The notes under the pieces are model-generated. The model did not search any database. It was not told the DNA's origin and was given only the letters and a program-made list of their open reading frames with translations. A stretch of DNA of 43,652 bases from Thermodesulfobacteriota bacterium. GTDB lineage: Bacteria > Desulfobacterota > Desulfobulbia > Desulfobulbales > DAOVYS01. The translations under genes and the position numbers were made by a program. Shown here piece by piece: positions 6,287 to 43,652 of this stretch (the first letter of the stretch is position 1; each line of letters begins with the position of its first letter). The stretch spans positions 1-43,652 of the forward strand of contig JAYEGR010000049.1 of the NCBI GenBank assembly GCA_034659175.1, in the 5' to 3' direction.

Positions 6287-7594
6287 ATGAATATAACCAT
6301 GATCGGAACAGGCTATGTGGGACTTGTGACCGGAGCGTGTCTTTCTGAATTCGGCCACAGGGTGATCTGCATGGATAAGGACGTTTCCAAGATTGCTTCA
6401 CTTGCAAAGGGAGAAATCCCTATTTTTGAGCCGGGTCTTGAAAATATTGTTGGGAAAAACGTGAAAGATGGGCGGCTTTTTTTTACTACGGACCTGGCAG
6501 AGGCTGCCGCAGAGTCTGATGCGGTTTTTATCGCCGTTGGAACGCCTGCGACTCGCAGGGGGGACGGCTATGCAAATCTCTCTTTTGTCTATTCCGCGGC
6601 AAGGGAACTGGCCCCCCATTTAAAAGGGTATACCGTTATTATAGACAAAAGCACGGTGCCCGTCGGGACAGCCGGACAGGTTGAGAGAATTGTGAAAGAG
6701 GAGAATCCGGATGCTGATTTTAATATTGTCTCTAATCCGGAATTCCTGCGCGAAGGCGCGGCAATTAATGATTTTATGCGGCCGGACCGCGTGGTTATCG
6801 GCGCTGACTCGGAACGGGCCGTTAAAGTAATGAAAGAGGTGTACGACCCTCTTTACCTTATTTCTACGCCTTTTGTCGAGACCACACTTGAAACTGCCGA
6901 GCTTATAAAATATGCTGCAAACGCATTTCTTGCCATTAAGATCAGTTTTATTAATGAAATGGCAAATATCTGCGAGGCGGTGAATGCAGATGTTATTGCG
7001 CTTGCAAAGGCAGTGGGGCTGGATGGACGAATAGGCGGGAAATTTCTTCATCCCGGGCCTGGTTACGGCGGGTCCTGTTTTCCGAAAGACACTCTTGCCC
7101 TGATGCGGATCGCCCAGGAGAACAGCGTCGCAGCCCGGCTTGTGGAGGCTGCGGTGGAGGTCAACTCCGCCCAGAAGGCAAGAATGGTCAAAAAGATAAG
7201 AGACGCCCTGGGAGGTTCGGAGGCGGGCAAAACCATCGGAATTTTAGGCATGACTTTTAAACCTGAAACAGACGACCTGAGGGATGCGCCCTCATTAACC
7301 ATTCTGCCGGCCCTTGCTGAAAAGGGCGCCAGGCTGCGTGTCCATGATCCTGTGGCCATGGAAGAGGCGTCCGCGATGTTTCCGGAATTCGAGTTTGTTA
7401 AGAATCCGTATGCAGCCTGCGAAGGCGCCGACGCAGTGGTGTTGCTCACGGAATGGAACCAATACAGGGCACTTGATCTCAAATCGATCAGGTCTCTTAT
7501 GAAAAAACCGGTCTTCATTGACTTGCGTAATGTGTATGAACCTCGCAAAATGCTGGAGGCAGGGTTCCATTATATGGGCGTGGGACGACTGTAA
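6287..7594 (+). CDS. ugd: UDP-glucose 6-dehydrogenase
   Basis: MIGTGYVGLV NAD motif, GYGGSCFPKD catalytic Cys, 435 aa. Confidence 0.92.
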   Translation: MNITMIGTGYVGLVTGACLSEFGHRVICMDKDVSKIASLAKGEIPIFEPGLENIVGKNVKDGRLFFTTDLAEAAAESDAVFIAVGTPATRRGDGYANLSFVYSAARELAPHLKGYTVIIDKSTVPVGTAGQVERIVKEENPDADFNIVSNPEFLREGAAINDFMRPDRVVIGADSERAVKVMKEVYDPLYLISTPFVETTLETAELIKYAANAFLAIKISFINEMANICEAVNADVIALAKAVGLDGRIGGKFLHPGPGYGGSCFPKDTLALMRIAQENSVAARLVEAAVEVNSAQKARMVKKIRDALGGSEAGKTIGILGMTFKPETDDLRDAPSLTILPALAEKGARLRVHDPVAMEEASAMFPEFEFVKNPYAACEGADAVVLLTEWNQYRALDLKSIRSLMKKPVFIDLRNVYEPRKMLEAGFHYMGVGRL

Positions 7595-7602
7595 TAAAAC
7601 GT

Positions 7603-7756
7603 GTAAATATTCGGCAGCACTCCACAGGAAGGCGATCAGGCTGCCCAGCATACCTAAGTATAGCTGATCAGCCTGCTCAACCTCCCTGTGAAGCGCTGCC
7701 AAACATTTACAGTTTGGTAGTTTTAGCTATTTTCCGGCATCAAGCCGAATATTTAC
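7603..7756 (+). mobile_element. MITE-like element, family A, copy A1 (short-loop variant)
   Basis: 13-bp terminal inverted repeats GTAAATATTCGGC / GCCGAATATTTAC. Perfect 8-bp direct repeat TAAAACGT at 7595-7602 and 7757-7764. Long internal imperfect hairpin. Near-identical copies at 11784-11960 and 12804-13002. Confidence 0.85.
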
Positions 7757-7791
7757 TAAAACGTCTTGAAATATTCAATGGACAATGTTGG

Positions 7792-11223: not shown

Positions 11224-11249
11224 TTATTGGGATAAAAAATCCTTATTTA
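11224..11249 (-). promoter_or_regulatory. possible sigma28 (FliA)-type promoter upstream of the FliL-like gene
   Basis: The minus strand reads TAAA-N14-CCCAATAA. The remembered consensus is TAAA-N15-GCCGATAA, so the -10 block matches 6 of 8 positions. Confidence 0.25.
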
Positions 11250-11280
11250 GTACCTTTAAAAAATTTCGGTTTATCTGGGT
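11249..11280 (-). promoter_or_regulatory. conserved 32-nt leader motif (copy 1) upstream of the FliL-like gene
   Basis: AGTACCTTTAAAAAATTTCGGTTTATCTGGGT matches 23377-23408 at 27 of 32 positions by manual alignment. Both copies lie upstream of FliL-family genes on the minus strand. Confidence 0.5.
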
Positions 11281-11316
11281 AAGCGCCATGGGGATATGCA
11301 CTCGGGTGGATACGGA

Positions 11317-11697
11317 TTAAGTCAATACCTTGTCGATTTTTTCTCCAAGAGTTTCAGCTGTGAACGGCTTGACAATGTACTGGCTGACCTTGGCCTTGAC
11401 GGCCAGGATGATGTTGTCCTGCTGTGCCTCCGCTGTCACCATAATGAACGGGGTGTCGGCCATTTCAGCATTGCCGCGTACATTTTTCAAGAGATCAAGG
11501 CCGGTCATCTTGGGCATGTTCCAGTCAGAGATGATCAGATCCACTTTTTCTTTCTCCAGAATTTCCAATGCCGTTGTGCCGTCATCAGCCTCGACGATGT
11601 TGTTGTAACCCAACTGTTTAAGGATATTCTTTACTATCCGGCGCATGGTGGCAAAATCGTCGACAACAAGAACTTTCATATTGGTGGTGTCTGCCAT
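11317..11697 (-). CDS. cheY: chemotaxis response regulator CheY
   Basis: 126 aa single receiver. VLVVDDFATMRR, phospho-acceptor context ISDWNMPKMTG, conserved K in YIVKPF. Confidence 0.93.
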   Translation of the reverse strand: MADTTNMKVLVVDDFATMRRIVKNILKQLGYNNIVEADDGTTALEILEKEKVDLIISDWNMPKMTGLDLLKNVRGNAEMADTPFIMVTAEAQQDNIILAVKAKVSQYIVKPFTAETLGEKIDKVLT

Positions 11698-11783: not shown

Positions 11784-11960
11784 ATGCCTATACGGCTTGA
11801 TGCCGGGAAATAGCTAACGCCACCAAATTTGAAATTGTAAATGTTTGGCAGCGCTTCACAGGGAGGTGAGCAGGCTGGTCAGCAGATAAGCGCAGACTTC
11901 GATACTTTGGTATGCTGGGCAGCCTGATCGCCTTCCTGTGGAGTGCTGCTGAATATTTAC
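11784..11960 (-). mobile_element. MITE-like element, family A, copy A2 (long-loop variant, degenerate left end)
   Basis: Reverse-complement match to A1 across the body. Intact right end GCTGAATATTTAC. The left end has decayed (ATGCCTATACGGC). T-rich 8-mers flank it (TTTTTTTG / TTTTTTTT). It carries the same ~19-nt apical insertion (AGATAAGCGCAGACTTCGA) as A3. Confidence 0.75.
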
Positions 11961-12010: not shown

Positions 12011-12793
12011 TTAAACGGTTAAGGCTTTTTTCAGTTTTGATCGAAGGCGGAACATGGCCTTGCTGTGCATTTGAGAGATACGGGACTCGGTATATCCCAG
12101 GATCCGGCCGATTTCCTTCATGGTGAGTTCTTCAAAATAATACAAAGAGACTGCGAGTTTTTCCTTTTCCGGCAGTTCCATGATCGCTTTGGCCACATGG
12201 TCGCGAATCTCGGAAAGACTGATCGCGGCAAACGGATCTTTGTCACTGTCGGTGAACGAATCCGTAATACCGGTATCCATGGTTCCCGGTGCCTTCTGAC
12301 GAAGAAATTCGATATCCATAAAGGTGACGGTTTTGGTCTCGTCAAGCAGCTTGTAAAATCCGTCAAGCGAGATGTCCATAAATTTGGCCGCTTCTTCATC
12401 GGTGGCGGGCCGGCCCAGTTTTTTTTCCAGGTTGGAATAGGTTTTTTCAAGGGCGGTTACCTTTCTCCGGATCGATCTGGGCATCCAGTCAAGGGAACGG
12501 AGTTCATCAAGCATTGCCCCTTTTATACGGAATTCAGCGTATGTCTTGAACTGAACATTTTTGGAAGTATCAAATTTATCTATTGCATCGATCAGACCGA
12601 TGATTCCGCTGCTGATCAGGTCGTCAATTGCAACGTGCGGCGGCAGTCTGGAGGTTAAACGGGCGGCAATATACTTGATCAACGGCGTGTAGTTTATGAT
12701 CAGGTCATTGCGCTTCTCCGCATCCAGTCGCCCGGACCGGCTGAAATAGGCCTGAGTGTAATCTTTTAATTTTGGGGATTGGTGTTTATTCAT
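12011..12793 (-). CDS. fliA: flagellar RNA polymerase sigma factor FliA (sigma28)
   Basis: 260 aa. Sigma70 region 2 (LISSGIIGLIDAIDKFD), region 3 and region 4 (LYYFEELTMKEIGRILGYTESRISQMH). Located after flhF-flhG. Confidence 0.93.
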   Translation of the reverse strand: MNKHQSPKLKDYTQAYFSRSGRLDAEKRNDLIINYTPLIKYIAARLTSRLPPHVAIDDLISSGIIGLIDAIDKFDTSKNVQFKTYAEFRIKGAMLDELRSLDWMPRSIRRKVTALEKTYSNLEKKLGRPATDEEAAKFMDISLDGFYKLLDETKTVTFMDIEFLRQKAPGTMDTGITDSFTDSDKDPFAAISLSEIRDHVAKAIMELPEKEKLAVSLYYFEELTMKEIGRILGYTESRISQMHSKAMFRLRSKLKKALTV

Positions 12794-12803
12794 GCCTGAC
12801 TTT

Positions 12804-13002
12804 GTAAATATTCGGCTTTATGCCGGAAAACAGCTAGAACCACCAAATTGTAAATGTTTGGCAGCGCTTCACAGGGAGGTGAGCAGGCTGATCAGCAGAT
12901 AAGCGCAGACTTCGATACTTTGGTATGCTGGGCAGCCTGATCGCCTTCCTGTGGAGTGCTGCCGAATATTTACCTTCCTGTGGAGTGTTGTCGAATATTT
13001 AC
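12804..13002 (-). mobile_element. MITE-like element, family A, copy A3 (long-loop variant with duplicated end)
   Basis: TIRs GTAAATATTCGGC / GCCGAATATTTAC. The last 29 nt are tandemly repeated (CTTCCTGTGGAGTGTTGTCGAATATTTAC). Perfect 8-bp direct repeat CTGACTTT at 12796-12803 and 13003-13010. Confidence 0.88.
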
Positions 13003-13008
13003 CTGACT

Positions 13009-13908
13009 TTATAGATTGAACAGCCCCTGCCAGAAAAATTTAATATTACCGTCCGCCTTGAGGTCCGGATCTTCCCGGCTGATCCGGTCCGAGAGTTTTT
13101 TGAATTTTTTGCTTGATGCTGAATCAGGGTATAACTCCACCACAAGGCGTTGTTTCTTAACTGCTAATAGTAATTTATTATCATAAGGAATAAATCCAAG
13201 AAAATCCAGGGAAAGTGTATTTAAAAAACGATCAGCCACCAGGCTTAACTGACGAAAAACCGCCAGAGCTTCTTTTTCTGAACGGACGAGGTTTATCAGT
13301 ATCCGGAATTTTTTAACGTCATGACGGGTGGACAGTACTTTGATCATTGCATAGGCATCTGTTAGAGATGTAGGCTCCGGAGACAAGAGGATGATGCGCT
13401 CCTGGGCCGCCAGAGTAAAATAGATCACGTTGTTGTTGATGCCGGCTGCAGTATCAATGAGCAGGATGTCGATTTTGCTCCCCAGAGACTCCATTTCACC
13501 AAGAAAGTAGAGTTTCTGACTTTCCGTCAGATTTGACATTTCCATTATCCCGGAACTGGCCGGAAGTATAAAAATTCCTCCAGGGCCTTCAACCAGGACA
13601 TCCGGCAGGGCCTTTTCGCCGATAAAGACATGATGCAGGTTGAATCTGGGCGTAAGACCAAGAAGGACATCGACATTTGCCAGGTTCAGGTCTGCGTCAA
13701 GGACAAGCACCTTTTTCCCTGCTTTACTGAGGGAATAGGCCAGATTCGTGACAACATTGGTCTTCCCGACGCCCCCCTTTCCGCTGGTTACGCAGATCAC
13801 CCTTGGCATGGAACCGCTTTCTGTCAGTTTATCATAAATAGTTGAACCCTGAACAGTTGCAAGCTGTGTTTGAGTCATCATCTTTTCCAATGTCTCTGCT
13901 TGGTTCAT
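13009..13908 (-). CDS. flhG: flagellar number regulator FlhG (MinD/ParA-type ATPase)
   Basis: Deviant Walker A SGKGGVGKTN, 299 aa, positioned directly after flhF. Confidence 0.9.
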   Translation of the reverse strand: MNQAETLEKMMTQTQLATVQGSTIYDKLTESGSMPRVICVTSGKGGVGKTNVVTNLAYSLSKAGKKVLVLDADLNLANVDVLLGLTPRFNLHHVFIGEKALPDVLVEGPGGIFILPASSGIMEMSNLTESQKLYFLGEMESLGSKIDILLIDTAAGINNNVIYFTLAAQERIILLSPEPTSLTDAYAMIKVLSTRHDVKKFRILINLVRSEKEALAVFRQLSLVADRFLNTLSLDFLGFIPYDNKLLLAVKKQRLVVELYPDSASSKKFKKLSDRISREDPDLKADGNIKFFWQGLFNL

Positions 13909-13938
13909 TCTGTTTCCTTTGATTTTAAATAGTTGTTT

Positions 13939-14054
13939 AGGTAGAAGGCCGAAGGTATAAGGTAGAAGGTTGAAGGTATAAGGGCAAACGTCTGTTAACC
14001 TTCAGCCTAAATCCCTTCAACCTTCTACCTTCTACCTAAAACCTTCAACCTAAA
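13939..14054. repeat. two inverted arrays of heptanucleotide repeats (AGGNNNA x7, 10-nt spacer, complementary ACCTNNN-type units x8)
   Basis: Read directly: AGGTAGA AGGCCGA AGGTATA AGGTAGA AGGTTGA AGGTATA AGGGCAA, then acgtctgtta, then ACCTTCA GCCTAAA TCCCTTCA ACCTTCT ACCTTCT ACCTAAA ACCTTCA ACCTAAA. The region fills the flhF-flhG intergenic space. Confidence 0.85.
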
Positions 14055-14062
14055 AATTTTCA

Positions 14063-15229
14063 TCATGAGGCCATGGCCGTGTTCCAGCCCTGTCCGAAGA
14101 GTTTGTTGATAAAGTCATACGAGGCCATTTGAAAGTCTTCCGGAACCCGTTGGCCCGTGCATACACACGAAACCGGCAGGCATGATGAAACAACCTGCTG
14201 ACAGAGTGCGGCATATGCCCTGGTTTCATCCAGTTTAGTCAGTATGATTCCATTTACTGAAAGCGGACTGTAAGCATTAGTCATACTGGCCAGATCCTCT
14301 TTTTTAGTAGTGGCGCTTATGACCAGGTATGGGTTAATGGAATTAAGAGGCTCAAACCAGCTTTCAAGTTCGGGAACGTGCCTGCTGTCATATGGACTTT
14401 TCCCTGCTGTATCGATTATGATCAGGTCTTTGTCACTGTGTTTTGCAACAGCTTTTACCAGGTCCTGTTTTCTTAAAACAATTTCGCATGGTAATTTCAT
14501 GATTTGTGAATAGGTTCGGAGTTGGTCCGTGGCGCCTATCCTGTAACAATCCATTGAAATAAGCGCCACTTTGCGTCTTTCCCGCAGACTGAACCATGCT
14601 GCAATTTTGGCGACGGTTGTGGTCTTGCCCACACCTGTTGCCCCAACAAGGCATATTAACGTTTGCGGTTTTTCCTTTACCTGATGCGTCAAGGGAATGA
14701 CCTGAACCTGTTTGATGAGTTCATTTCGCCACCTTGTCACTTCTTTTGGGTCTGGTTTATCGGGTATTGTTTCGGTCGGTACGTGGGGAATCTGTTTTTT
14801 GTTTTCAGGGGGAGATGTTGCTTTTGAAGTAATATGCGTATTTAAAAGAGCGGAGAAACGTTTCTTAAGATCCAGGGCCTCCAAACTTGCAGGCTGTTGT
14901 TTTATTATTGGGATCTCGCCGGGAATCAATATGGCCTTTTCAGGAGTTAAGGAGTTTGATGCCTTTTTGATAATATCATTTTTAGTCCGCTTTTTCGGTG
15001 CGTAACCGTATTCCGTAACAGGAATCTCAACCGGTTGCCGCTCCTTGCCGTCATAATCTATGGCAGCCACAACTTCGACAAGGGACGAGTTGTGATTTTT
15101 CTTTTTACCGTTACGTCTTGATGGGGAAATGTTCCTCGTTGTGAGGATAAGAGCGTCATTTCCCATTTCATTTTTGATCATGGCAAGGGCCGTCCTGGTG
15201 TCCGGGGCCTCAAATCTTTTGATCCTCAT
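14063..15229 (-). CDS. flhF: flagellar biosynthesis GTPase FlhF (SRP family)
   Basis: 388 aa. G1 LVGATGVGKTTT, DTAG, TKLDE motifs. Lies between flhA and flhG. Confidence 0.92.
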   Translation of the reverse strand: MRIKRFEAPDTRTALAMIKNEMGNDALILTTRNISPSRRNGKKKNHNSSLVEVVAAIDYDGKERQPVEIPVTEYGYAPKKRTKNDIIKKASNSLTPEKAILIPGEIPIIKQQPASLEALDLKKRFSALLNTHITSKATSPPENKKQIPHVPTETIPDKPDPKEVTRWRNELIKQVQVIPLTHQVKEKPQTLICLVGATGVGKTTTVAKIAAWFSLRERRKVALISMDCYRIGATDQLRTYSQIMKLPCEIVLRKQDLVKAVAKHSDKDLIIIDTAGKSPYDSRHVPELESWFEPLNSINPYLVISATTKKEDLASMTNAYSPLSVNGIILTKLDETRAYAALCQQVVSSCLPVSCVCTGQRVPEDFQMASYDFINKLFGQGWNTAMAS

Positions 15230-15330: not shown

Positions 15331-17436
15331 CTACCCCTTCGGGTTAACTTCAATGGTGCCCAGTGACCGGATTTTCGCCTGTGTTGTCAGCTCGCTGTGC
15401 GAGATTACCGTGACCTGTGGCATGAACTGTTTAATAAAGCGCTGCAGATGCATGCGTATGACAGGCGAACAGATCACAAGGGGCGGATAGCCCTCATTGG
15501 ATATTTTTTCAACCGATGTCCCGATTGAGTCAAGAATTTGTGTTGCCAGATTCGGTTCAATGGACAGGTAGGCGCCATGATCGCTTTTTCGGATTGATTC
15601 ACGGATAAGATCCTCGACTTTGGTGGCCAGTGTCAGTACGGAGAGGTTTCCTTCCTCGTCAATAAAGGCGCTGACAATTGATCTGGCCAGTTTCTGCCGC
15701 ACGTACTCGGTCAGGGTGTCCGGGTCCTTACTTATATATGCAAAATCAGCCAGTGTCTCGCAGATTGTGAGAAGATCGCGGATCGAGACCCGCTCCCGTA
15801 AAAGATTCTGGAGAACTTTCTGCACTCCGCCCAGGCTAAGCAGGTTCGGAACCAGTTCTTCAATCACCTTTGGATGGGTTTTGGCAAGATTATCAAGGAG
15901 TTTCTGTGTGTCCTGACGACCGAGCAGTTCATCTGCATGTGCCCTGAGCAGCTCCGTCATGTGAGTGGCCACAACGGTTGACGGATCGACCACGGTATAG
16001 CCGGCCACCTGGGCCTCATCCTTCTTGTCTTCAGTAATCCATATGGCTGGAAGCCCGAATGCCGGCTCTTTTGTCGGAATTCCATCAATTTTGCGTTTAG
16101 CTGCTCCGGAATCCATGGCAAGGAGATATTCCATCATCACATCTCCGCGGGTGATTTCGATTCCCTTGAGCAAAAGGACGTATTCATCCGGTTTGATCTG
16201 GAGATTGTCACGTACGTGAAGGGGCGGAATGATCAGACCCATTTCCATTGCAAACTGCCTTCTAATGGCCCTGATTCGTTCAAGGAGGTCACCTTCCTTG
16301 GTTTCGTCGACCAATGGAATAAGAGCGTAGCCCACCTCGAGTTGCAGTGTGTCCAGAGGCAGAAGGCTCTCAACCGTTTCCGGCGCTCCAGGGGGAGGTT
16401 CGGTTTCTTTTATTTCTTCCTCCTTTTCTTCTGTTTTCCTCTTGGCTTCATTTTGAAAGGCGAAGAATGCCAGGCCTCCCATTAGCGTTGCCAGTATGAG
16501 AAACGGGACGTGAGGAAGGCCGGGTATCAATCCGAACAGGAAGATAATCCCTGATGTAACGGCCAGGGCCTGCGGCTGCAACCCGAACTGTTTGGCGAAT
16601 TCCGATCCCATGCTCTTGTCCGAGGCTGCGCGGCTCACGATTATACCGGCCGAGGTGGAGATGATAAGGGCCGGAATCTGGGATACCAGGCCGTCTCCAA
16701 TAGTCAGGAGGGTGTAAGTCTCGGCTGCCGTGCCGAATGGCATGCCCTGTTTTAAGACACCGATTGCCCATCCGCCCATAATATTGATCACAATAATTAC
16801 TATGGAGGCAATTGCCTCGCCGCGTACAAATTTGGCTGCACCGTCCATGGCCCCGTAAAATTCGGCCTGCCTGGAGATCTCCATCCTGCGATTTTTCGCG
16901 CCCTGCTCATCGATCAGTCCGGCATTCAAGTCCGCGTCAATGGCCATCTGCTTGCCCGGCATTGCATCAAGAGTGAAGCGGGCCGCCACTTCCGCGATTC
17001 GTCCCGAACCTTTTGTGATGACAATAAAATTGATCAGCACAAGAATCGCGAAAATGATAATGCCCACACCGTAGTCTCCTCCTATGACAAAATTGCCGAA
17101 TGAATTGATCACCTGGCCCACCGCGCCTTTACCTTCATGTCCGTGCAGGAGGATCAGCCGAGTGGACGCGATGTTCAAAGACAGCCTGAACAGTGTCGAG
17201 ATCAGGAGCACTGAAGGAAATGAGGAGAAATCAAGTGGCCGGGTGTTGTACATGGACATGAGCAGGATGACCAGTCCTATAGTGATGTTCAGAGAAAGAA
17301 GCAGGTCCAGGATAACTGTGGGCAGTGGAATAATCATGATTATGAGTATTCCGACAACACCGACAGCCACAATGAGACTCGTGGACTCCATGTTAAAGGT
17401 ACTCACTCCTGGTATTGTCCCAGTATTGTCAGCCAT
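15331..17436 (-). CDS. flhA: flagellar type III export protein FlhA
   Basis: 701 aa. N-terminal polytopic TM region, the FHIPEP-like segment, and a large cytoplasmic C-domain. Confidence 0.96.
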   Translation of the reverse strand: MADNTGTIPGVSTFNMESTSLIVAVGVVGILIIMIIPLPTVILDLLLSLNITIGLVILLMSMYNTRPLDFSSFPSVLLISTLFRLSLNIASTRLILLHGHEGKGAVGQVINSFGNFVIGGDYGVGIIIFAILVLINFIVITKGSGRIAEVAARFTLDAMPGKQMAIDADLNAGLIDEQGAKNRRMEISRQAEFYGAMDGAAKFVRGEAIASIVIIVINIMGGWAIGVLKQGMPFGTAAETYTLLTIGDGLVSQIPALIISTSAGIIVSRAASDKSMGSEFAKQFGLQPQALAVTSGIIFLFGLIPGLPHVPFLILATLMGGLAFFAFQNEAKRKTEEKEEEIKETEPPPGAPETVESLLPLDTLQLEVGYALIPLVDETKEGDLLERIRAIRRQFAMEMGLIIPPLHVRDNLQIKPDEYVLLLKGIEITRGDVMMEYLLAMDSGAAKRKIDGIPTKEPAFGLPAIWITEDKKDEAQVAGYTVVDPSTVVATHMTELLRAHADELLGRQDTQKLLDNLAKTHPKVIEELVPNLLSLGGVQKVLQNLLRERVSIRDLLTICETLADFAYISKDPDTLTEYVRQKLARSIVSAFIDEEGNLSVLTLATKVEDLIRESIRKSDHGAYLSIEPNLATQILDSIGTSVEKISNEGYPPLVICSPVIRMHLQRFIKQFMPQVTVISHSELTTQAKIRSLGTIEVNPKG

Positions 17437-17537
17437 CTTTTTGCTTCCGGTTGTTTTGGTGGGAACAGCCCACCCTGCAAAATTCTTTTATGTTATTCGT
17501 TTTTCTACCGTAACGGTCTGAAATTACGACTTGCCTT

Positions 17538-17669
17538 GTAAACGTTCACAGGTGCTGTAGCTGTGCGTGATCAGGGCAATCAGCTATAGTCAACCTATGC
17601 TGGTTGCCCTGATCACGCGCAGGTAAGCGAGCCTGCGAGACTCCGGATGCAGTGCCTGTGGACGTTTGC
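17538..17669 (+). mobile_element. palindromic MITE-like element, family B, copy B1
   Basis: Outer arms GTAAACGTTCACAGGTGC / GCAGTGCCTGTGGACGTTTGC. Inner arms GTGCGTGATCAGGGC / GCCCTGATCACGCGC around a CTATAGTCAACCTATG centre. Asymmetric module GCAGGTAAGCGAGCCTGCGAGACTCCGG. Related copies at 33456-33587 and 40745-40894. Confidence 0.8.
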
Positions 17670-17671
17670 AA

Positions 17672-18742
17672 TCATGCGCTTTTTTGTTTGAGGCTGTAGA
17701 CATATGCAAGCACTTCCGCCACTGCCTCGAAAAGGTTTTCGGGTATGGAATCGTCTATGTCCACGGTCTTGAAAAGGGCCTGGGCCAGAGGCATGTCTTC
17801 CACGATCGGAATGGAGTGCTCGGCAGCGACTTCTCTAATACGTCTTGCGATAACACCTGCGCCTTTGGCAACCACCACAGGCGCACTCATTGTAAGGCTG
17901 TCATACCGAAGTGCGACTGCCAGTCGGACCGGGTTTGTAATAATTACATCTGCGGACGGCACTTCCTCCATCATTCTTCTTCTGGCCATTTGCATCTGGA
18001 TCGACCTGATTCGTCCTTTAACCTGTGGGTCACCCTCTGTCATCTTGGCTTCTTCCTTGACCTCCTGCTTGGTCATTTTCATTTTGTTCGTGAACTGCCA
18101 TTTCTGAAACGCATAATCCAAGGCTGCAAGGATAGCTATGATAATTGCGGCCTTTAAGAAAATCCAGAAAGAGGTCTTTACTACGAATACAAAAATCGGA
18201 AAAGGCTCCTGATCCATAAGAGGCAGGAGCGAGGGCATGGATTTTTTTACTTCGTAAAAAGCCACTGCGCCGATAAATATTATTTTTAAAATGGATTTGA
18301 TCAAATGGGCAAGCGTCTGCATGGAGAATTTGTTTTGAACGCCCTTGATCGGGTCTATTTTTTTGAGGTCGGGCTTAATCTTTTCCCCTGTGAAAATTAT
18401 CCCGATCTGAGCGTAATTGGCCGCAAGCGCGGTCACCAGGACCACGGCCATAACGGGCGCCACGATCATGGTGGAATAAAGCATGCTTTCGCGGGTTATT
18501 GTGACCATGTTGTCCTTGATGATTTCAATGGTATGAAGATTCCCGAGATAATGCCTTAGCAGCATGTATAAACGCTCCAGCATGAAGTCGCCTAAAAAAT
18601 ACAAGGTCAAAAGGCCGGCAAGAAGCACTGCGGCAGACGGGATTTCCATACTTTTTGCCACATCGCCTTTTTTCCTGGCGTCGGCAAGGCGCCGCGCGGT
18701 AGGTTGTTCGGTTTTTTCCTGTCCGGTACTCTCTTCAGCCAT
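17672..18742 (-). CDS. flhB: flagellar type III export protein FlhB
   Basis: 356 aa. N-terminal EKTEQPT, four TM helices, and the NPVRL variant of the NPTH autocleavage region (ITNPVRLAVAL). Confidence 0.95.
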   Translation of the reverse strand: MAEESTGQEKTEQPTARRLADARKKGDVAKSMEIPSAAVLLAGLLTLYFLGDFMLERLYMLLRHYLGNLHTIEIIKDNMVTITRESMLYSTMIVAPVMAVVLVTALAANYAQIGIIFTGEKIKPDLKKIDPIKGVQNKFSMQTLAHLIKSILKIIFIGAVAFYEVKKSMPSLLPLMDQEPFPIFVFVVKTSFWIFLKAAIIIAILAALDYAFQKWQFTNKMKMTKQEVKEEAKMTEGDPQVKGRIRSIQMQMARRRMMEEVPSADVIITNPVRLAVALRYDSLTMSAPVVVAKGAGVIARRIREVAAEHSIPIVEDMPLAQALFKTVDIDDSIPENLFEAVAEVLAYVYSLKQKSA

Positions 18743-23325: not shown

Positions 23326-23376
23326 TATTTTCGTAAAGGTAGTTATACCTCTTCAAGGGGGTACTGAAAATAGTCC

Positions 23377-23408
23377 AGTACCTTTAAGGAATTCCTGTTT
23401 ATCCGGGT
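23377..23408 (-). promoter_or_regulatory. conserved 32-nt leader motif (copy 2) in the fliL 5' leader
   Basis: AGTACCTTTAAGGAATTCCTGTTTATCCGGGT matches 11249-11280 at 27 of 32 positions. It lies between the sigma54 promoter (23480-23494) and the fliL ATG (23325). Confidence 0.5.
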
Positions 23409-23479
23409 TACGGTTTCCGGTTTTGCCGGGTGTCTACCGGAAGACACAACTTGAAAGAGAACTATTACCTTGATTTTAG

Positions 23480-23779: not shown

Positions 23780-24694
23780 ATGTATCTACAACAGCTACTG
23801 ACTATTATTGGCAAAGAAAGAGAAAAGGAACTCCCGACATGCATTACGGATCTGGTTGAAAACGGCCTTTCGCAGGACAGGTTCACTGATGAAGAGTTTA
23901 GACCGGGCCGCCATGAAATAACACTCTTTCTTGCTGCCTGGTGCCGTCGAATCGGCCTGGGGGAGGAGTATTACCGCGATTGGTTGATTGATTACAGCCT
24001 TGATGTTCTGGGGGGCATTTCCACTAGTTCTCCCTCTCAGATTCGTCACAGCACCAAGTCAACCATAAAGTACGTCCATCGTTCCGATGTTGACTTTTCC
24101 TGCCATTGTCAACGCAATATTTTCAAAGCCGTCTGTGGCCCCGACTGCCCACTCTATTGGGAGATGGAGACTCTTCACAAACAGGAACTCGATATAAAGC
24201 GTAAACGGCTTGAAGAGGACAAACGGATCAAGGAAGAGGGCATGCCTGTTCTGGAAAAAGTGAGCGTTAAAGAGCAACATAAGGAGAAATTTGAGAAGGC
24301 GGTCGAGCAGATTCAAAAATATCTTAAAGAAAGCCGAACAAAAAAAGAAATTGTCGATCTTCTCAAGGAAAAAGGATACAAGACCCGTACCGGCCGCGAA
24401 TGGACTACCTCAGTTTTACAAATTTTAATAAAGGAAAAAGGATGGGGTGCGAAACGGCTTAAAAAATCGATTAAATTGACCGTTACACAGCAATATAAGG
24501 AACAATTTGAGGAGGCGGTCAAGCATATTCAAAGATATCTTAAACAAGGCCGAACAAAAAAAGAAATTGCCGACCTTCTTAATGAAAAAGGATACAAGAC
24601 CAGTACAGGCCGTGAATGGAAAGCCAATGGCATCAACATAGCCATGGAAACAGGCGAGTTGAAAGGTAACCGTTCAAAACGTATAACCAAATGA
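23780..24694 (+). CDS. hypothetical protein: Cys-containing N-terminal domain, coiled coil, two tandem recombinase-like HTH repeats
   Basis: AAGGAG RBS at 23764-23769 and a TTGACA box at 23726-23731. A 72-aa (216-nt) internal duplication holds two copies of K..FE.AV..IQ.YLK..RTKKEI.DLL.EKGYKT.TGREW. The N-terminal ~130 aa ends in C-H-C...C-x3-C. Confidence 0.7.
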   Translation: MYLQQLLTIIGKEREKELPTCITDLVENGLSQDRFTDEEFRPGRHEITLFLAAWCRRIGLGEEYYRDWLIDYSLDVLGGISTSSPSQIRHSTKSTIKYVHRSDVDFSCHCQRNIFKAVCGPDCPLYWEMETLHKQELDIKRKRLEEDKRIKEEGMPVLEKVSVKEQHKEKFEKAVEQIQKYLKESRTKKEIVDLLKEKGYKTRTGREWTTSVLQILIKEKGWGAKRLKKSIKLTVTQQYKEQFEEAVKHIQRYLKQGRTKKEIADLLNEKGYKTSTGREWKANGINIAMETGELKGNRSKRITK

Positions 24695-30848: not shown

Positions 30849-30966
30849 AAAATTATCTGTTGTCCATTAAAAAACATTGGTAACCGGTCAGAAAGGGGTC
30901 AGTAATTTAGCGATGTGGACGAACCCTAACCCAGATAAACTGGAATTCTTTAAAGGTCCTGGATAA

Positions 30967-31021
30967 GTACCTTAGAAAATATTTTCTGCCAGAAACGCGC
31001 AGAAAATATTTTCTAAGGTAC
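30967..31021. promoter_or_regulatory. perfect 23-bp-arm palindrome carrying two AGAAAATATTTTCT sites
   Basis: GTACCTTAGAAAATATTTTCTGC (30967-30989), a 9-nt spacer, then GCAGAAAATATTTTCTAAGGTAC (30999-31021). Each arm contains the self-complementary 14-mer AGAAAATATTTTCT. Confidence 0.7.
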
Positions 31022-31542
31022 TAAGCGCTAACAGTTGTTTAAGTGGATTACCCTCAGTAATCCGCGACAAACCAGAAAAATTAACCTTGCTCCTCCTGAT
31101 TTGAAACAGGCTGATTTTTTTGATAAAAATCGACCACGAGAAATACCGGAGAGCCAATATGATTGCTGCAATACTCAGTTGCACCGGTATATCAAAGGGT
31201 TGAGCAATTATTTATGCCATACTTTTTCATTTTTCAAAAGAAATTTTTTTTAACCGTTCAGAGGGGCACCCTTTGAACGGTTACGTTCAAGCTGTCCCGA
31301 GTCTGTCGGCGTAAAGAAAGCTCTTGGCAAGCGCCCTTAGTATTGATATTGTGCAATACAAAAAAGGTAATCGTTCCCCTGCGTCTCATTAATTCCTGCA
31401 TTAGTTTCTGTTTGCTTACAGCATTTAAATTTCAAAAATTGATAATTGATCTCAAACAGGAAGCCCTAACCCGGAGGGCGCTATGTTCTCCGGGTTAGGC
31501 GAATAGTCGGTTTAAGTTTGTATTTTTAAAGGAGCAAGGAAC

Positions 31543-33459
31543 ATGGCAAAAACAGTAACAGAAAAAATATTAAAAAATCACCTGGTTGAGGGTCGTATGG
31601 AAAAAGGTGAAGAGATCGGCATCCGCATTGATCAGACCCTGACCCAGGATGCCACAGGCACTATGGCCTATCTTGAATTTGAAGCAATCTCCATTCCAAG
31701 AGTTCAGACCGAGCTGTCGGTCTCTTATGTGGACCATAATCTGGTTCAGTCTGATTTCAGGAATGGTGACGACCATCGGTTCCTTCAATCCGTTGCCCGG
31801 AAATATGGTCTCTACTTTTCTCCCCCCGGGAACGGCATTTCCCACCAGATCCACCTGGAAAGATTCGGCAGGCCCGGCAGGACTCTCTTAGGTTCCGACA
31901 GTCATACTCCCACAGGCGGAGGTCTCGGCATGCTTGCAATAGGCGCCGGAGGGCTCGATGTGGCCATGGCAATGGCCGGAAAGCCATTCTTCATGATAAT
32001 GCCGAAGGTCTATGGCGTTAAACTGACCGGCCGATTGCCGGAATGGGTGTCAGCCCGGGACGTGCTTCTCGAACTGCTCAGGCAACTCTCCGTCAAGGGC
32101 GGTGTAGGATATGTCATGGAATATTTCGGCCCAGGCGTTAAAGAGTTATCTGTAACAGACCGGGCGGCCATAACCAACTTCGGTGCTGAACTGGGTGCCA
32201 CCACTTCGGTGTTTCCGTCGGACGAGAACACTAAAAAATTTCTGGAAAGTCAGGGACGGGGCGGCCTGTGGGAAGAGCTTGCAGCTGATGAAGGCGCCTG
32301 TTATGACAAGGTGATTGAGATTGATATGTCCACACTGGAACCGCTTATCGCCTGTCCCTCATCTCCGGATAACGTGGTAAAGGTCCGGGAAGTGGCCGGT
32401 AAGCCCGTGTTTCAGGTGCTGGTGGGCTCATGCTCCAATTCATCGTTGCGTGATCTGATGCTTGTCTCCAAGGCGCTGGATGGTAAACAGGTACACAATG
32501 ACGTGAGTTTCGAAATCAACCCGGGCAGCCGCCAGGTACTGGAAAACCTTACGGCCCAGGGATACATGCTCTCTCTGATCAAGGCCGGCGCCCGCATCCA
32601 TCAGGCAGGCTGCCTGGGATGTATTGGAATGGGACAGGCGCCGGCCACGGATACAATTTCACTAAGGACCTTTCCCCGGAATTTTCCCGGCCGCAGCGGG
32701 ACCAAAGACGACCGGGTTTATTTATGCAGTCCTGAAACCGCGGTTGCGTCGGCGCTCAAGGGGTGCATCACGGATCCGCGTGATCTGGGTGTATACCCTG
32801 AATTCAGTCTGCCTGAGAAGTATCTGCCCGGTGATCAACGGATCGAACCGCCGAAATCAGAGGGTGAAAGTACCATGATCATCCGTGGACCGAATATAGC
32901 GTCCTTCCCTGAGTTTGATCCTGTCCCCGAAACATGGGAAGGCACAGTGCTGTTAAAGACAGCGGATAATATTACTACTGATCACATCATGCCGGCAGGC
33001 GCTCAGATACTTCCGCTCAGGAGCAATATTCCAGCTATCAGTGAATTTGTATTTAACTCCATTGACCGGGAATTTGTTCAGCGGGCAAAGAGAGCAAGCA
33101 GCGGTATGGTTGTGGGAGGTGAGAACTATGGTCAGGGATCATCCAGGGAGCATGCCGCACTGGCACCGCGTTATCTTGGAGTGCGCGTAAAACTGGTCAA
33201 GAGCTTTGCACGCATTCATAAGGCAAATCTGATCAATTTCGGCATCCTGCCGTTTACCTTTACATCGGCTGAAGACTACGACATAATCGAGCAGGGTGCA
33301 AAGGCGGTTATTCCGGATCTAAGAAAAAATCTTGAATCCGGGGCAGAGGTCTTTGTGTTGGATGTAGCCGGCAATAAAATTAAAATCAGCCTGGATATCT
33401 CCACACGGCATCGTGAGATACTACTGGCAGGCGGTCTCCTGAACTGGGCAAGACAGTAA
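31543..33459 (+). CDS. aconitate hydratase (short ~640-aa aconitase family member)
   Basis: 638 aa. Aconitase catalytic and swivel domains with Fe-S Cys contexts (VGSCSNSS, GCLGCIGMG). GGAGCAAGG RBS region upstream. Confidence 0.9.
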   Translation: MAKTVTEKILKNHLVEGRMEKGEEIGIRIDQTLTQDATGTMAYLEFEAISIPRVQTELSVSYVDHNLVQSDFRNGDDHRFLQSVARKYGLYFSPPGNGISHQIHLERFGRPGRTLLGSDSHTPTGGGLGMLAIGAGGLDVAMAMAGKPFFMIMPKVYGVKLTGRLPEWVSARDVLLELLRQLSVKGGVGYVMEYFGPGVKELSVTDRAAITNFGAELGATTSVFPSDENTKKFLESQGRGGLWEELAADEGACYDKVIEIDMSTLEPLIACPSSPDNVVKVREVAGKPVFQVLVGSCSNSSLRDLMLVSKALDGKQVHNDVSFEINPGSRQVLENLTAQGYMLSLIKAGARIHQAGCLGCIGMGQAPATDTISLRTFPRNFPGRSGTKDDRVYLCSPETAVASALKGCITDPRDLGVYPEFSLPEKYLPGDQRIEPPKSEGESTMIIRGPNIASFPEFDPVPETWEGTVLLKTADNITTDHIMPAGAQILPLRSNIPAISEFVFNSIDREFVQRAKRASSGMVVGGENYGQGSSREHAALAPRYLGVRVKLVKSFARIHKANLINFGILPFTFTSAEDYDIIEQGAKAVIPDLRKNLESGAEVFVLDVAGNKIKISLDISTRHREILLAGGLLNWARQ

Positions 33460-33587
33460 AGGGCCACAGTCGGCGCATCCGGAGTCTCGCAGGCTCGCTT
33501 ACCTGCACGTGATCAGGGCGACCGGTATAGGTTACTATAACCGGGTCGCCCTGATCACGCACACCTGCACCGACTGTGGCCCTTTAC
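33456..33587 (-). mobile_element. palindromic MITE-like element, family B, copy B2
   Basis: Perfect 18-bp termini GTAAAGGGCCACAGTCGG / CCGACTGTGGCCCTTTAC. Inner GTGATCAGGGCGACC...GGTCGCCCTGATCAC hairpin. The CCGGAGTCTCGCAGGCTCGCTTACCTGC module is inverted relative to B1. The aconitase TAA stop (33457-33459) lies inside the terminus. Confidence 0.85.
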
Positions 33588-33658: not shown

Positions 33659-33822
33659 TTAGGGCTCGCACAAAAATAACTTCACATTTTCATGCGCCGA
33701 TCCATCCCGCATGGCTGCGTTGCTCGTCGGTTAAATAGCCCTGCTATTCGCCCTTCTCGCGCCTTGCCATGCGGGCGCCTCAACACCTGAAAATATAAAT
33801 TTATTTTTGGGCGAACCCTTAA
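33659..33822. mobile_element. third palindromic repeat element (family E) with ~55-nt imperfect inverted termini
   Basis: The left end TTAGGGCTCGCACAAAAATAACTTCACATTTTCA...CCCGCATGGC pairs with the right end GCCATGCGGG...TGAAAATATAAATTTATTTTTGGGCGAACCCTTAA. A 20-nt copy of the terminus (TTAGGGCTCGCTCAAAAATA) occurs at 11156-11175. Confidence 0.6.
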
Positions 33823-34033
33823 ATCAAGGGGATAAATTTGGTTTATAGTGTGTACAGAAAAAATTGGTCGTGTATCCGGCTGATTTTGCCTGGAAAGGTG
33901 ATAGGTTGGGCAGAAATTGATTTGTACAGTAAAAAAAATTGTATTTTAGGTGGTGTGGAGAGAGGGGTTATTGTCTTTGGTAATTTGTTGGTATTACTGG
34001 AATTTTTCTGGATTTCGAGCTTTTTTAGGGGTT

Positions 34034-37818: not shown

Positions 37819-38085
37819 AATTCCTTTTTTTTAGTACCTTAGAAAATATTATCGGAAAGTACTTATACCATGATTGCAGTTACATTTTTCGTAATTTTAT
37901 TCCGGATTTACGGAAAAATAGAGATGTTTTGATTATGTTAGTATGTGGCGAATATTAGCCTAACAAGTTGCAATTGCGGAAACAAATCAAGCGCATAGGG
38001 AAAATGGAATGAATTTTGCAGTTTAACTGTATCAATGGACGATTTTTATGTATTGTGAATAAAATAGCGACAACAATTCTGATTA

Positions 38086-40744: not shown

Positions 40745-40894
40745 GTAATCGTTCACAGGTGCCCCAGATGTGCACCCTGAAGGGCATAAACTCCAGCAGG
40801 CCGGCGAACTATAGTAAACCTATGTGAGTCGGACTGATCGCGTGCAGGTAAGCGAGACTGCGAGACTCCGGGTGGGGTGCCTGTGAACGATTCC
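40745..40894 (+). mobile_element. palindromic MITE-like element, family B, copy B3 (degenerate inner arm)
   Basis: Termini GTAATCGTTCACAGGTGCCCC / GGGGTGCCTGTGAACGATTCC. Central CTATAGTAAACCTATG. Module GCAGGTAAGCGAGACTGCGAGACTCCGG in the same orientation as B1. Confidence 0.8.
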
Positions 40895-41630
40895 GGCCCT
40901 TCAAGTGACGCGAATGTGCTGAAGCCCTCTGACAGATTTTCAACAGTGATTGCAAACCAGCGGATGTCCTGGTTGCCTTCAAGTTTGCTCCCAATGGCTT
41001 TTGCCAATTTTTCTACTGAAAGGTAATTATCCCGTGATGGATTGGGAGATTTTTCAGGCCAACACAGATTGTGTGACGTGACCTTCTCGACCATCTCGAT
41101 CAATTCTTCAATCCAGATAAAACGTTTAAAGCGGAGACGAATTTCCGCAACCCCCCAGTGGCCCAGGGATCTAGGCAGGCCTTCACTGATCTGGGCTGGG
41201 ACGGGAGGTGAGATGGGTACCTGAATTTCCAGGGTCAGGTCGTCCTCGCCGTCAAGGGATCCATGCATCCTGCAAGTGTATACGGAGATGCCGACCGTAT
41301 TTGGAAAGGTGTTTTTTTTTTCAGGAAGTAAGGGAATTCAATCTCAATATGGGCGGCTTCGGCTTTTAGTTTTGTCTTCATTTCCTCAAGGATCAACCGA
41401 AAACTCCTTAAGTTTATATGGCCGTGAAACCGGTTCAGTATTTCAATAAACCGGCTCATATGTGTGCCTTTGAAGAGGTGGGGCAGATTTACATACATGT
41501 TGACCGTGCCAACGGTCCTCTGAAGCTTGTTTTCCTTGTCCAGAACAGAGATCGGATAAGAAATTCCTTTTATCCCGACCTTTTTAATGTTGATTCGGCG
41601 GTCATCGGGCTGGTTTTGAATATCTTTCAT
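40895..41630 (-). pseudogene. folE2: GTP cyclohydrolase FolE2/MptA family (type IB), frameshifted and 3'-disrupted
   Basis: The N-terminal ORF (41235..41630) has FolE2 hallmarks (INIKKVGIKGISYPISV...KGTHMSRFIEIL). The frame breaks at an A10 run (T10 on the plus strand, 41312-41321). The continuation (NTFPNTVGISVYTCRMHGSLDGEDDLTLEIQVP...IWIEELI) is in the +1 frame. That ORF then reads through repeat B3. Confidence 0.65.
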
Positions 41631-41646
41631 AAGGTACTTATCTACA

Positions 41647-43416: not shown

Positions 43417-43506
43417 GCCGACTAATCTCCCTGAGTTACTGAGTTACGATTAATGCTTTTGTAAAAGTCAATGAGATGGTTAAACTTTATGCCTTTATCC
43501 CCCCCC

Positions 43507-43583
43507 CCTTCAGCCTTCAGCCTTCAACCTTCAGCCTTTAGCCTTCAACCTTCAGCCTTTAGCCTTCAACCTTCAGTCTTCAC
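43507..43583. repeat. tandem heptanucleotide array, 11 units of CCTTCAG/CCTTCAA/CCTTTAG, preceded by a C10 homopolymer
   Basis: Read directly: CCTTCAG CCTTCAG CCTTCAA CCTTCAG CCTTTAG CCTTCAA CCTTCAG CCTTTAG CCTTCAA CCTTCAG TCTTCAC. C10 at 43499-43508. Upstream (minus sense) of the dksA-like gene. Confidence 0.9.
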
Positions 43584-43652
43584 TGCAGGTGTATGTACCG
43601 CTTTTGCCGCCTTTTTTGGAGAGGAGCCTTATATTGCTGATTACCATGCCTT

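Follow-up and report, generated by a model that had tools for sequence, protein, structure and literature searches.

On the minus strand of the 43,652-nt stretch of DNA analysed here (the window), which is from a sulfate-reducer-like bacterium, flagellar and chemotaxis genes lie in the order flhA (15331-17436), flhF (14063-15229), flhG (13009-13908), fliA (12011-12793) and cheY (11317-11697). FliA, FlhF and FlhA surpass their NCBIfam cut-offs, and flhG is in its canonical position, between FlhF (TIGR03499, 190.4 bits against 174.15) and FliA. The ATG of fliA is at 12793-12791, and the spacer between the two genes, 12794-13008, is 215 nt long. An earlier note on this DNA had proposed that a MITE of about 200 nt fills most of this distance, being inserted exactly where the flhG stop and the fliA start meet, and the coordinates were reproduced in the sequence. 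The features of the junction are these:

12011-12793, minus strand: fliA (sigma-28), 260 aa, intact; 255.5 bits against a cut-off of 189.6 on TIGR02479 FliA/WhiG
12796-12803: target-site duplication proximal to fliA, CTGACTTT; 2 nt upstream of the fliA ATG
12804-13002: MITE copy C, 199 nt, non-coding; inverted termini GTAAATATTCGGC (12804-12816) and GTCGAATATTTAC (12990-13002)
12804-12849: asymmetric arm of copy C, 46 nt; carries the second functional terminus and adjoins the target-site duplication
12850-12973: inner long hairpin module of copy C, with arms of about 30 nt, GTAAATGTTTGGCAGCGCTTCACAGGGAGG and CCTTCCTGTGGAGTGCTGCCGAATATTTAC
12974-13002: outer copy of the duplicated 29-nt end; 2 mismatches against the inner copy (12945-12973)
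13003-13010: target-site duplication proximal to flhG, CTGACTTT on the plus strand and AAAGTCAG on the minus strand; restores the two final bases of the flhG TAA
13009-13908, minus strand: flhG (MinD/ParA-type flagellar number regulator), 299 aa, ATPase; stop codon TAA at 13011-13009

The two flanking octamers form a perfect 8-bp duplication, as had been proposed. On the gene strand the octamer AAAGTCAG shares 2 nt with the flhG stop codon at one side, and at the other side only 10 native bases, the octamer and two more, are kept upstream of the fliA ATG, with MITE sequence beyond them. Since the duplication regenerates the flhG stop and leaves these 10 bases before the ATG, both reading frames are intact. 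The C-terminus of FlhG (...FFWQGLFNL) is unaltered by the insertion, and the DNA that encodes it is identical in two relatives, L001 and L037. FliA is of full length, with two private non-synonymous and two synonymous changes in its gene.

The termini of copy C, which are of the GTAAATATTCGRC type, are complementary at 12 of their 13 positions. The tandem duplication of one 29-nt end, also described in the earlier note, spans 12944-13004 (2.1 copies, 93% matches) and is exclusive to this copy among the family copies listed. The insert is strongly structured: the spacer, folded as the mRNA strand, has a computed energy of -80.1 kcal/mol against -53.8 +/- 4.6 for shuffled sequences (z = -5.75). 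Short size (below about 500 bp), absence of coding capacity, terminal inverted repeats, a target-site duplication of fixed length, occurrence in several copies and the existence of empty sites together bear out its identity as a MITE.

The MITE family in the window and in related genomes

The insert is a real, recent and strain-specific insertion of a multi-copy MITE family that fills many gene junctions. The family, referred to here as family 1, is present three times in the window. Its 30-nt end motif matches there at four places against none in 100 shuffles, and the 13-mer terminus has 12 matches where 2.0 +/- 1.3 are expected. Besides copy C these are:

7603-7756, orientation opposite to copy C: MITE copy A, 154 nt; perfect target-site duplication TAAAACGT at 7595-7602 and 7757-7764
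about 11789-11960, oriented as copy C is: MITE copy B, between fliA and cheY; degenerate terminus; A/T-rich, imperfect target-site duplication ATTTTTTT/TTTTTTTT

The inverted termini of copy A, again of the GTAAATATTCGRC type, are perfectly complementary, and its target-site duplication immediately follows the codon that ends a UDP-glucose dehydrogenase gene (stop at 7592-7594). Copy B is the older insertion, since decayed forms of it that have its odd terminus are present in L037, L160, L161 and L164; it is absent in L001 and L163.

The distribution of the family was followed by a scan with the degenerate 30-nt end motif over one genome per species, and the figures that follow are those of the matches listed. 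At least 75 stretches with the end motif were found in about 10 Desulfobulbales-type MAGs; the matches listed are in Thermodesulfobacteriota, Desulfobulbaceae and Desulfurivibrionaceae MAGs. Target-site duplications were sought in the octamers that flank pairs of ends 100-400 nt apart. Among the matches listed in the window and in related MAGs, 18 full copies have 8-bp duplications, 12 of them perfect and six with one mismatch, where a pair of octamers would agree by chance with one mismatch or less at a probability of 25/65536. The earlier note had let its reading of the octamers depend on whether other copies have such duplications, and they do. No consensus is common to the target octamers of the copies listed.

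Copies of the family are modular. Their lengths of 153/154, 170, 180 and about 199 nt are set by two optional internal blocks, so that copies range over 154-199 nt, or 250 nt with a nested insert, and only spurious short ORFs cross them. By heuristic ORF calls, 20 of the 24 listed copies that have an ORF within 400 nt on each side sit between co-directional ORFs, and in 12 of these 20 pairs neither neighbour is more than about 45 nt away from the copy. The copies in the 20 pairs show no preferred orientation with respect to transcription (10:10), which would have been a sign of selection. The window has no match in Rfam 15 at the gathering score, and at a relaxed threshold the search returned noise from hairpins of miRNA precursors alone, far below threshold. 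We found no published description of family 1, nor an Rfam model of it.

Many contigs of a MAG named 'Promethearchaeota archaeon JL_US_07_7' (JAIWHJ01; L008-L079) also have this bacterial MITE. They are evidently mis-binned or mislabelled, since the bacterial flagellar operon studied here has counterparts of about 97% identity on two of them, L021 and L037.

In the window, small repeats of four or more families account for at least nine insertions, and nearly all spacers of this flagellar operon differ among the relatives sampled. A second MITE-like family, with GTAA-type ends (GTAAACGTTCACAGG..., GTAAAGGGCCACAG...), is at 17538-17669, 33456-33587 and 40745-40892. In L021, which is 97% identical, 7 nt replace window positions 17495-17679 without a clean target-site duplication. 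The terminal GTAA of one copy of this family (33456-33459) contains the TAA stop codon of the ORF at 31543-33459, and the element appears to supply or overlap the stop. A third family is at 33660-33825, with terminal inverted repeats TTTAGGGCTCGC.CAAAAATAA. A fourth occurs at 30924-31024, 23333-23413, 11242-11283, 37831-37853 and 41618-41642; it has a perfect 24-nt palindrome (30966-31022), and one copy is nested in a family-1 MITE of L006 (2222-2471). Units of 7 nt (AGGTAGA / CCTTCTA-type) form inverted arrays at 13936-14055, in the flhF-flhG spacer, and at 43500-43586, near the end of the window; the length of the flhF-flhG spacer differs from that of relatives. Finally, a 148-nt direct repeat (24257-24404 and 24473-24620; 86% identity, 216-nt spacing) lies inside the ORF at 23780-24694 and presumably is an internal repeat of the protein.

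Alternative states of the flhG-fliA junction

Exact-sequence look-ups with the FliA and FlhG of the window gave no match. The nearest FliA homologue (P0001, 98% identical) is on the ENA contig L001, and a look-up with the CheY of the window led to five more relatives, 96-98% identical. The contigs compared at the flhG-fliA junction are 96-98% identical to the window at the locus, and among the relatives sampled copy C is seen solely in the window. In L001, which is also without copy B in its fliA-cheY spacer, the junction reads ...TTCAATCTA TAA GGC ATG AAT..., with a spacer of 3 nt. In L037, L160, L161 and L162 it reads CTA TAA [T/G]GGATGTGGAAATAAATAACTTACCCATCTCCCATCCC AAAGTCAGGC ATG, with a spacer of 48 nt, and in L163 it is a variant of this 48-nt state. 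None of these relatives, which lack the element, has a spacer of similar length to that of the window; the earlier note had named a similarly long spacer as counting against its proposal. What fills the 48-nt spacer is an unrelated palindromic mini-repeat of 38 nt (GGGATGTGGAAATAAATAACTTACCCATCTCCCATCCC; L037, 2336-2373), which recurs in L060 and L025 and is split in L048 by a family-1 MITE with an 8-bp duplication of its own. In the 89%-identical L002-L004, a repeat related to the third family of the window (33660-33825) ends 5 nt upstream of the AGTCAGAC ATG of fliA (L002, 1-125).

The earlier note had reconstructed an empty junction of 8 nt by removing the element and one octamer. This stands in its parts: the 48-nt alleles contain its left flank CTATAA as well as its right flank AAAGTCAGGCATG, and the window allele and the 48-nt allele are each one insertion away from CTATAAAGTCAGGCATG, the reconstructed form. 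The exact arrangement TAA-AGTCAGGC-ATG is in no relative, and the spacer of L001 is 5 nt shorter than the reconstruction. The insertion point itself is clean relative to both flanks known from relatives.

It should be considered whether the insert arose otherwise than by transposition, as a REP-like or recombination-derived palindrome or through misassembly of a repeat. Small palindromic repeats abound in the genome, and the MAG assemblies of relatives break at them. Such an origin is nonetheless most improbable in our judgement, given the perfect 8-bp duplications at the exact termini of this and 11 other copies and the clean insertion point. We hold, with good confidence, that a non-autonomous DDE-type element (MITE) was inserted recently, and in this strain specifically, into a very short flhG-fliA spacer, with little or modest effect. 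The ancestral junction would most likely have been CTA TAA AGTCAGGC ATG, with AAAGTCAG as the 8-bp target.

Tightness of the gene pair, also claimed in the earlier note, holds within the species-level group and does not extend beyond it. The relatives returned by a metagenome scan with FliA do not exceed 74% identity, and are informative for the length of spacers and not for empty sites. In 71 of them (55-74% identical in FliA) the distance from flhG to fliA varies between -4 and 250 nt, with 47 spacers of 42-100 nt, 10 of 4 nt or less, eight of 9-28 nt and six longer than 100 nt. Tight juxtaposition of flhG and fliA is not the rule in this order.

One species-level cluster has at least four states of the junction (3 nt; 48 nt with the 38-nt palindrome; a variant of the latter; 215 nt with the MITE), and in the 89% relative a member of the third repeat family stops 5 nt upstream of this AGTCAG. 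The junction might on this account be a recurrent landing site that tunes sigma-28 dosage, with insertions selected for uncoupling FliA from FlhG; a related option is that the self-folding hairpin joins stop and start, and coupling survives. We consider this unlikely.

Expression of fliA downstream of the insert

The element would be co-transcribed as part of the flhA-flhF-flhG-fliA-cheY unit and would fold by itself into an imperfect hairpin lacking a terminator. Between 12794 and 13008 the gene (minus) strand has no terminator-like site; the hairpin is followed by AAAGUCAGGCAUG. If fliA was coupled to flhG by termination and reinitiation, the insertion would also have ended that coupling. 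Every allele of fliA lacks a Shine-Dalgarno sequence at a distance at which it could function (cheY has GGGGG), and the long spacers of distant relatives are also without an evident one. A spacer of 3-8 nt with no Shine-Dalgarno sequence looks like translational coupling, and its loss could thus lower FliA.

The insertion may on these grounds be consequential, in that coupling is abolished, or that the hairpin is cut by RNase III or alters mRNA decay, with a shift of the FliA/FlhG ratio and of flagellar expression. The spacers of 8 nt (reconstructed) and 3 nt (L001) are typical of coupled genes, the spacer folds far better than its shuffles, and Correia and ERIC elements, when present in mRNAs, undergo processing by RNase III or RNase E and alter transcript levels (PMC10969869, PMC2649163). 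We find such an outcome possible but doubtful. The predicted accessibility of the start region is unaltered: opening positions -15 to +15 of fliA would cost 6.3 kcal/mol in the presence of the MITE and 6.4 in the reconstructed junction; L001 would need 6.8 and the 48-nt alleles 7.8-8.2. By these predictions the element folds on itself, without sequestering the fliA start. The helix of the mRNA strand is broken by A.C mismatches every 2-6 bp, which would make it a poorer substrate for RNase III. Sister lineages have spacers of 48 nt, or another MITE family at the same junction. Moreover, in the 47 of the 71 distant relatives whose spacers are 42-100 nt long, no Shine-Dalgarno sequence is evident, which suggests that tight coupling is not a general requirement of fliA expression in this order.

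How fliA is translated bears on the same question. Lacking a Shine-Dalgarno sequence in every allele, the gene either relied on its coupling to flhG or is initiated at a start region that is A-rich and unstructured. We favor the latter as the probable mode, because the 48-nt and the MITE-bearing alleles are tolerated and because distant relatives have long spacers that also lack the sequence.

The mismatches in the helix have a regular pattern. The arms of the hairpin differ at six transitions, each of which pairs as G.U on one of the strands and is an A.C mismatch on the opposite one, and copy C has a predicted fold of -101 kcal/mol as plus-strand RNA versus -78 as the fliA mRNA strand. The weaker-folding strand faces the local mRNA in all three copies of the window; a family-wide orientation bias is absent. 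The six transitions could reflect strand-specific deamination or selection on the fold of one strand.

Another way in which the insert could matter is by donating a promoter. The duplicated end would then have created a sigma-70-like promoter, reading outward or inward, and with it a separate fliA transcript. The sole promoter-like match on the gene strand (12994->12965, TCGACA-18-AATATT) does owe its -35 box to two substitutions in the outer copy of the duplicated end, and Correia elements can generate promoters (PMC2649163). But the match is weak (9 of 12 positions), and the eight promoter-like sites of the region are within about 1.7 sd of the 4.0 +/- 2.4 expected from shuffles. As it lies at the flhG-proximal end, a transcript from it would still hold nearly the whole hairpin, which counts against a role as promoter. 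The end duplication is in no other family copy listed. We regard a donated promoter as quite improbable. Inspection by eye for sigma-28 (TAAA-N15-GCCGATAA) and sigma-54 boxes revealed none with correct spacing; GCCGAATA in the terminus resembles the -10 of the former but was rejected, as no -35 is suitably spaced from it.

In sum, we prefer the view that copy C is a transposed insert that is most likely near-neutral or mildly quantitative in its consequences, on the basis of thermodynamic prediction and comparative tolerance, as this junction and the spacers next to it appear to accept other small repeats in sister lineages. Its quantitative effect on FliA would be small or modest. Copy C is otherwise ordinary bacterial MITE biology, and its value is as a clean example, with an allelic series at the start of a sigma-factor gene. 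A gene for a sigma factor, without a Shine-Dalgarno sequence and 3-8 nt behind its neighbour, has absorbed a hairpin of 200 nt with both frames intact. The natural series of alleles (3, 48 and 215 nt, plus the inferred 8 nt) offers a direct test of the weight of coupling for FliA. The MITE family is abundant in Desulfobulbales-type genomes, where it habitually fills operon junctions, and it is relevant to annotation, to operon prediction, and to fragmentation and mis-binning of MAGs.

Candidate parent and comparison with known elements

By its ends, family 1 is probably of IS66-like origin. Elements of the IS66 family have inverted repeats of 20-30 bp that start with GTAAGCG, and make direct repeats of 8 bp (PMC11946415); an example is ISDge4, with the terminal inverted repeat GTAACTGCTCAGCA and an 8-bp direct repeat (PMC12898284). 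ISL3 elements likewise generate 8-bp duplications (PMC3469429). The ends of family 1 begin with GTAAAT, in agreement with the first four of the seven bases of the IS66 consensus, and its 8-bp direct repeats agree with a hallmark of IS66 that ISL3 shares. Given these GTAA ends and the 8-bp length of the duplication, we infer that an IS66-family-like transposase may mobilise the element in trans.

No autonomous copy with these termini was found in the 75 listed loci or in the window. Pairs of ends 0.4-8 kb apart, among the matches listed, have no target-site duplication at any site, and the ORFs between such distant ends are housekeeping genes (PPIase, DnaJ). No ORF recurs in multiple copies across the listed loci, and no transposase family is among the 25 most frequently matched of the 229 Pfam families hit by 107 flanking ORFs. 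Viral contigs scanned with the left end gave no match. As no autonomous partner was found, the link to IS66 is made by four terminal bases and the length of the duplication. In comparison with IS66 (including the ISBst12 group), family 1 shares the GTAA ends and the 8-bp duplication, but the canonical inverted repeat starts with GTAAGCG in IS66 and is GTAAATATTCGGC in family 1.

Among small non-coding repeats, the ERIC/IRU sequences of enterobacteria are palindromic, intergenic and transcribed as part of operons, and can alter mRNA decay (PMC10969869). Family 1 is also palindromic and intergenic, but has no sequence relation to them and makes another target duplication. The Correia elements have as their hallmark the 26-bp Correia repeat and duplicate a TA; promoters, IHF sites and RNase III cleavage are documented for them. 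These elements (CREE/NEMIS) of Neisseria are short, bounded by terminal inverted repeats and non-coding; they are co-transcribed, form hairpins in mRNA and vary in presence between strains (PMC2649163, PMC10969869). Family 1 resembles them as a short hairpin element bounded by inverted repeats, but its 8-bp duplication and unrelated termini rule out membership of the Correia/CREE group.

The closest parallel in behaviour is with Chunjie, a MITE of Geobacter uraniireducens Rf4, which we compare by description only. It is described as about 180-235 bp long, with terminal inverted repeats, direct repeats and size variants, and as recently active; many of its copies are intergenic and one is inside an operon, the genes of which are left intact (Chen et al. 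2008, cited in PMC10969869). Both are thus MITEs inserted in operons that spare the genes. Chunjie differs in its host, which belongs to another order, and in having entered an ordinary spacer, whereas copy C entered a stop/start junction of 8 nt or less. Since its termini and target-site duplication differ from theirs, family 1 is placed outside the Chunjie, Correia and ERIC families.
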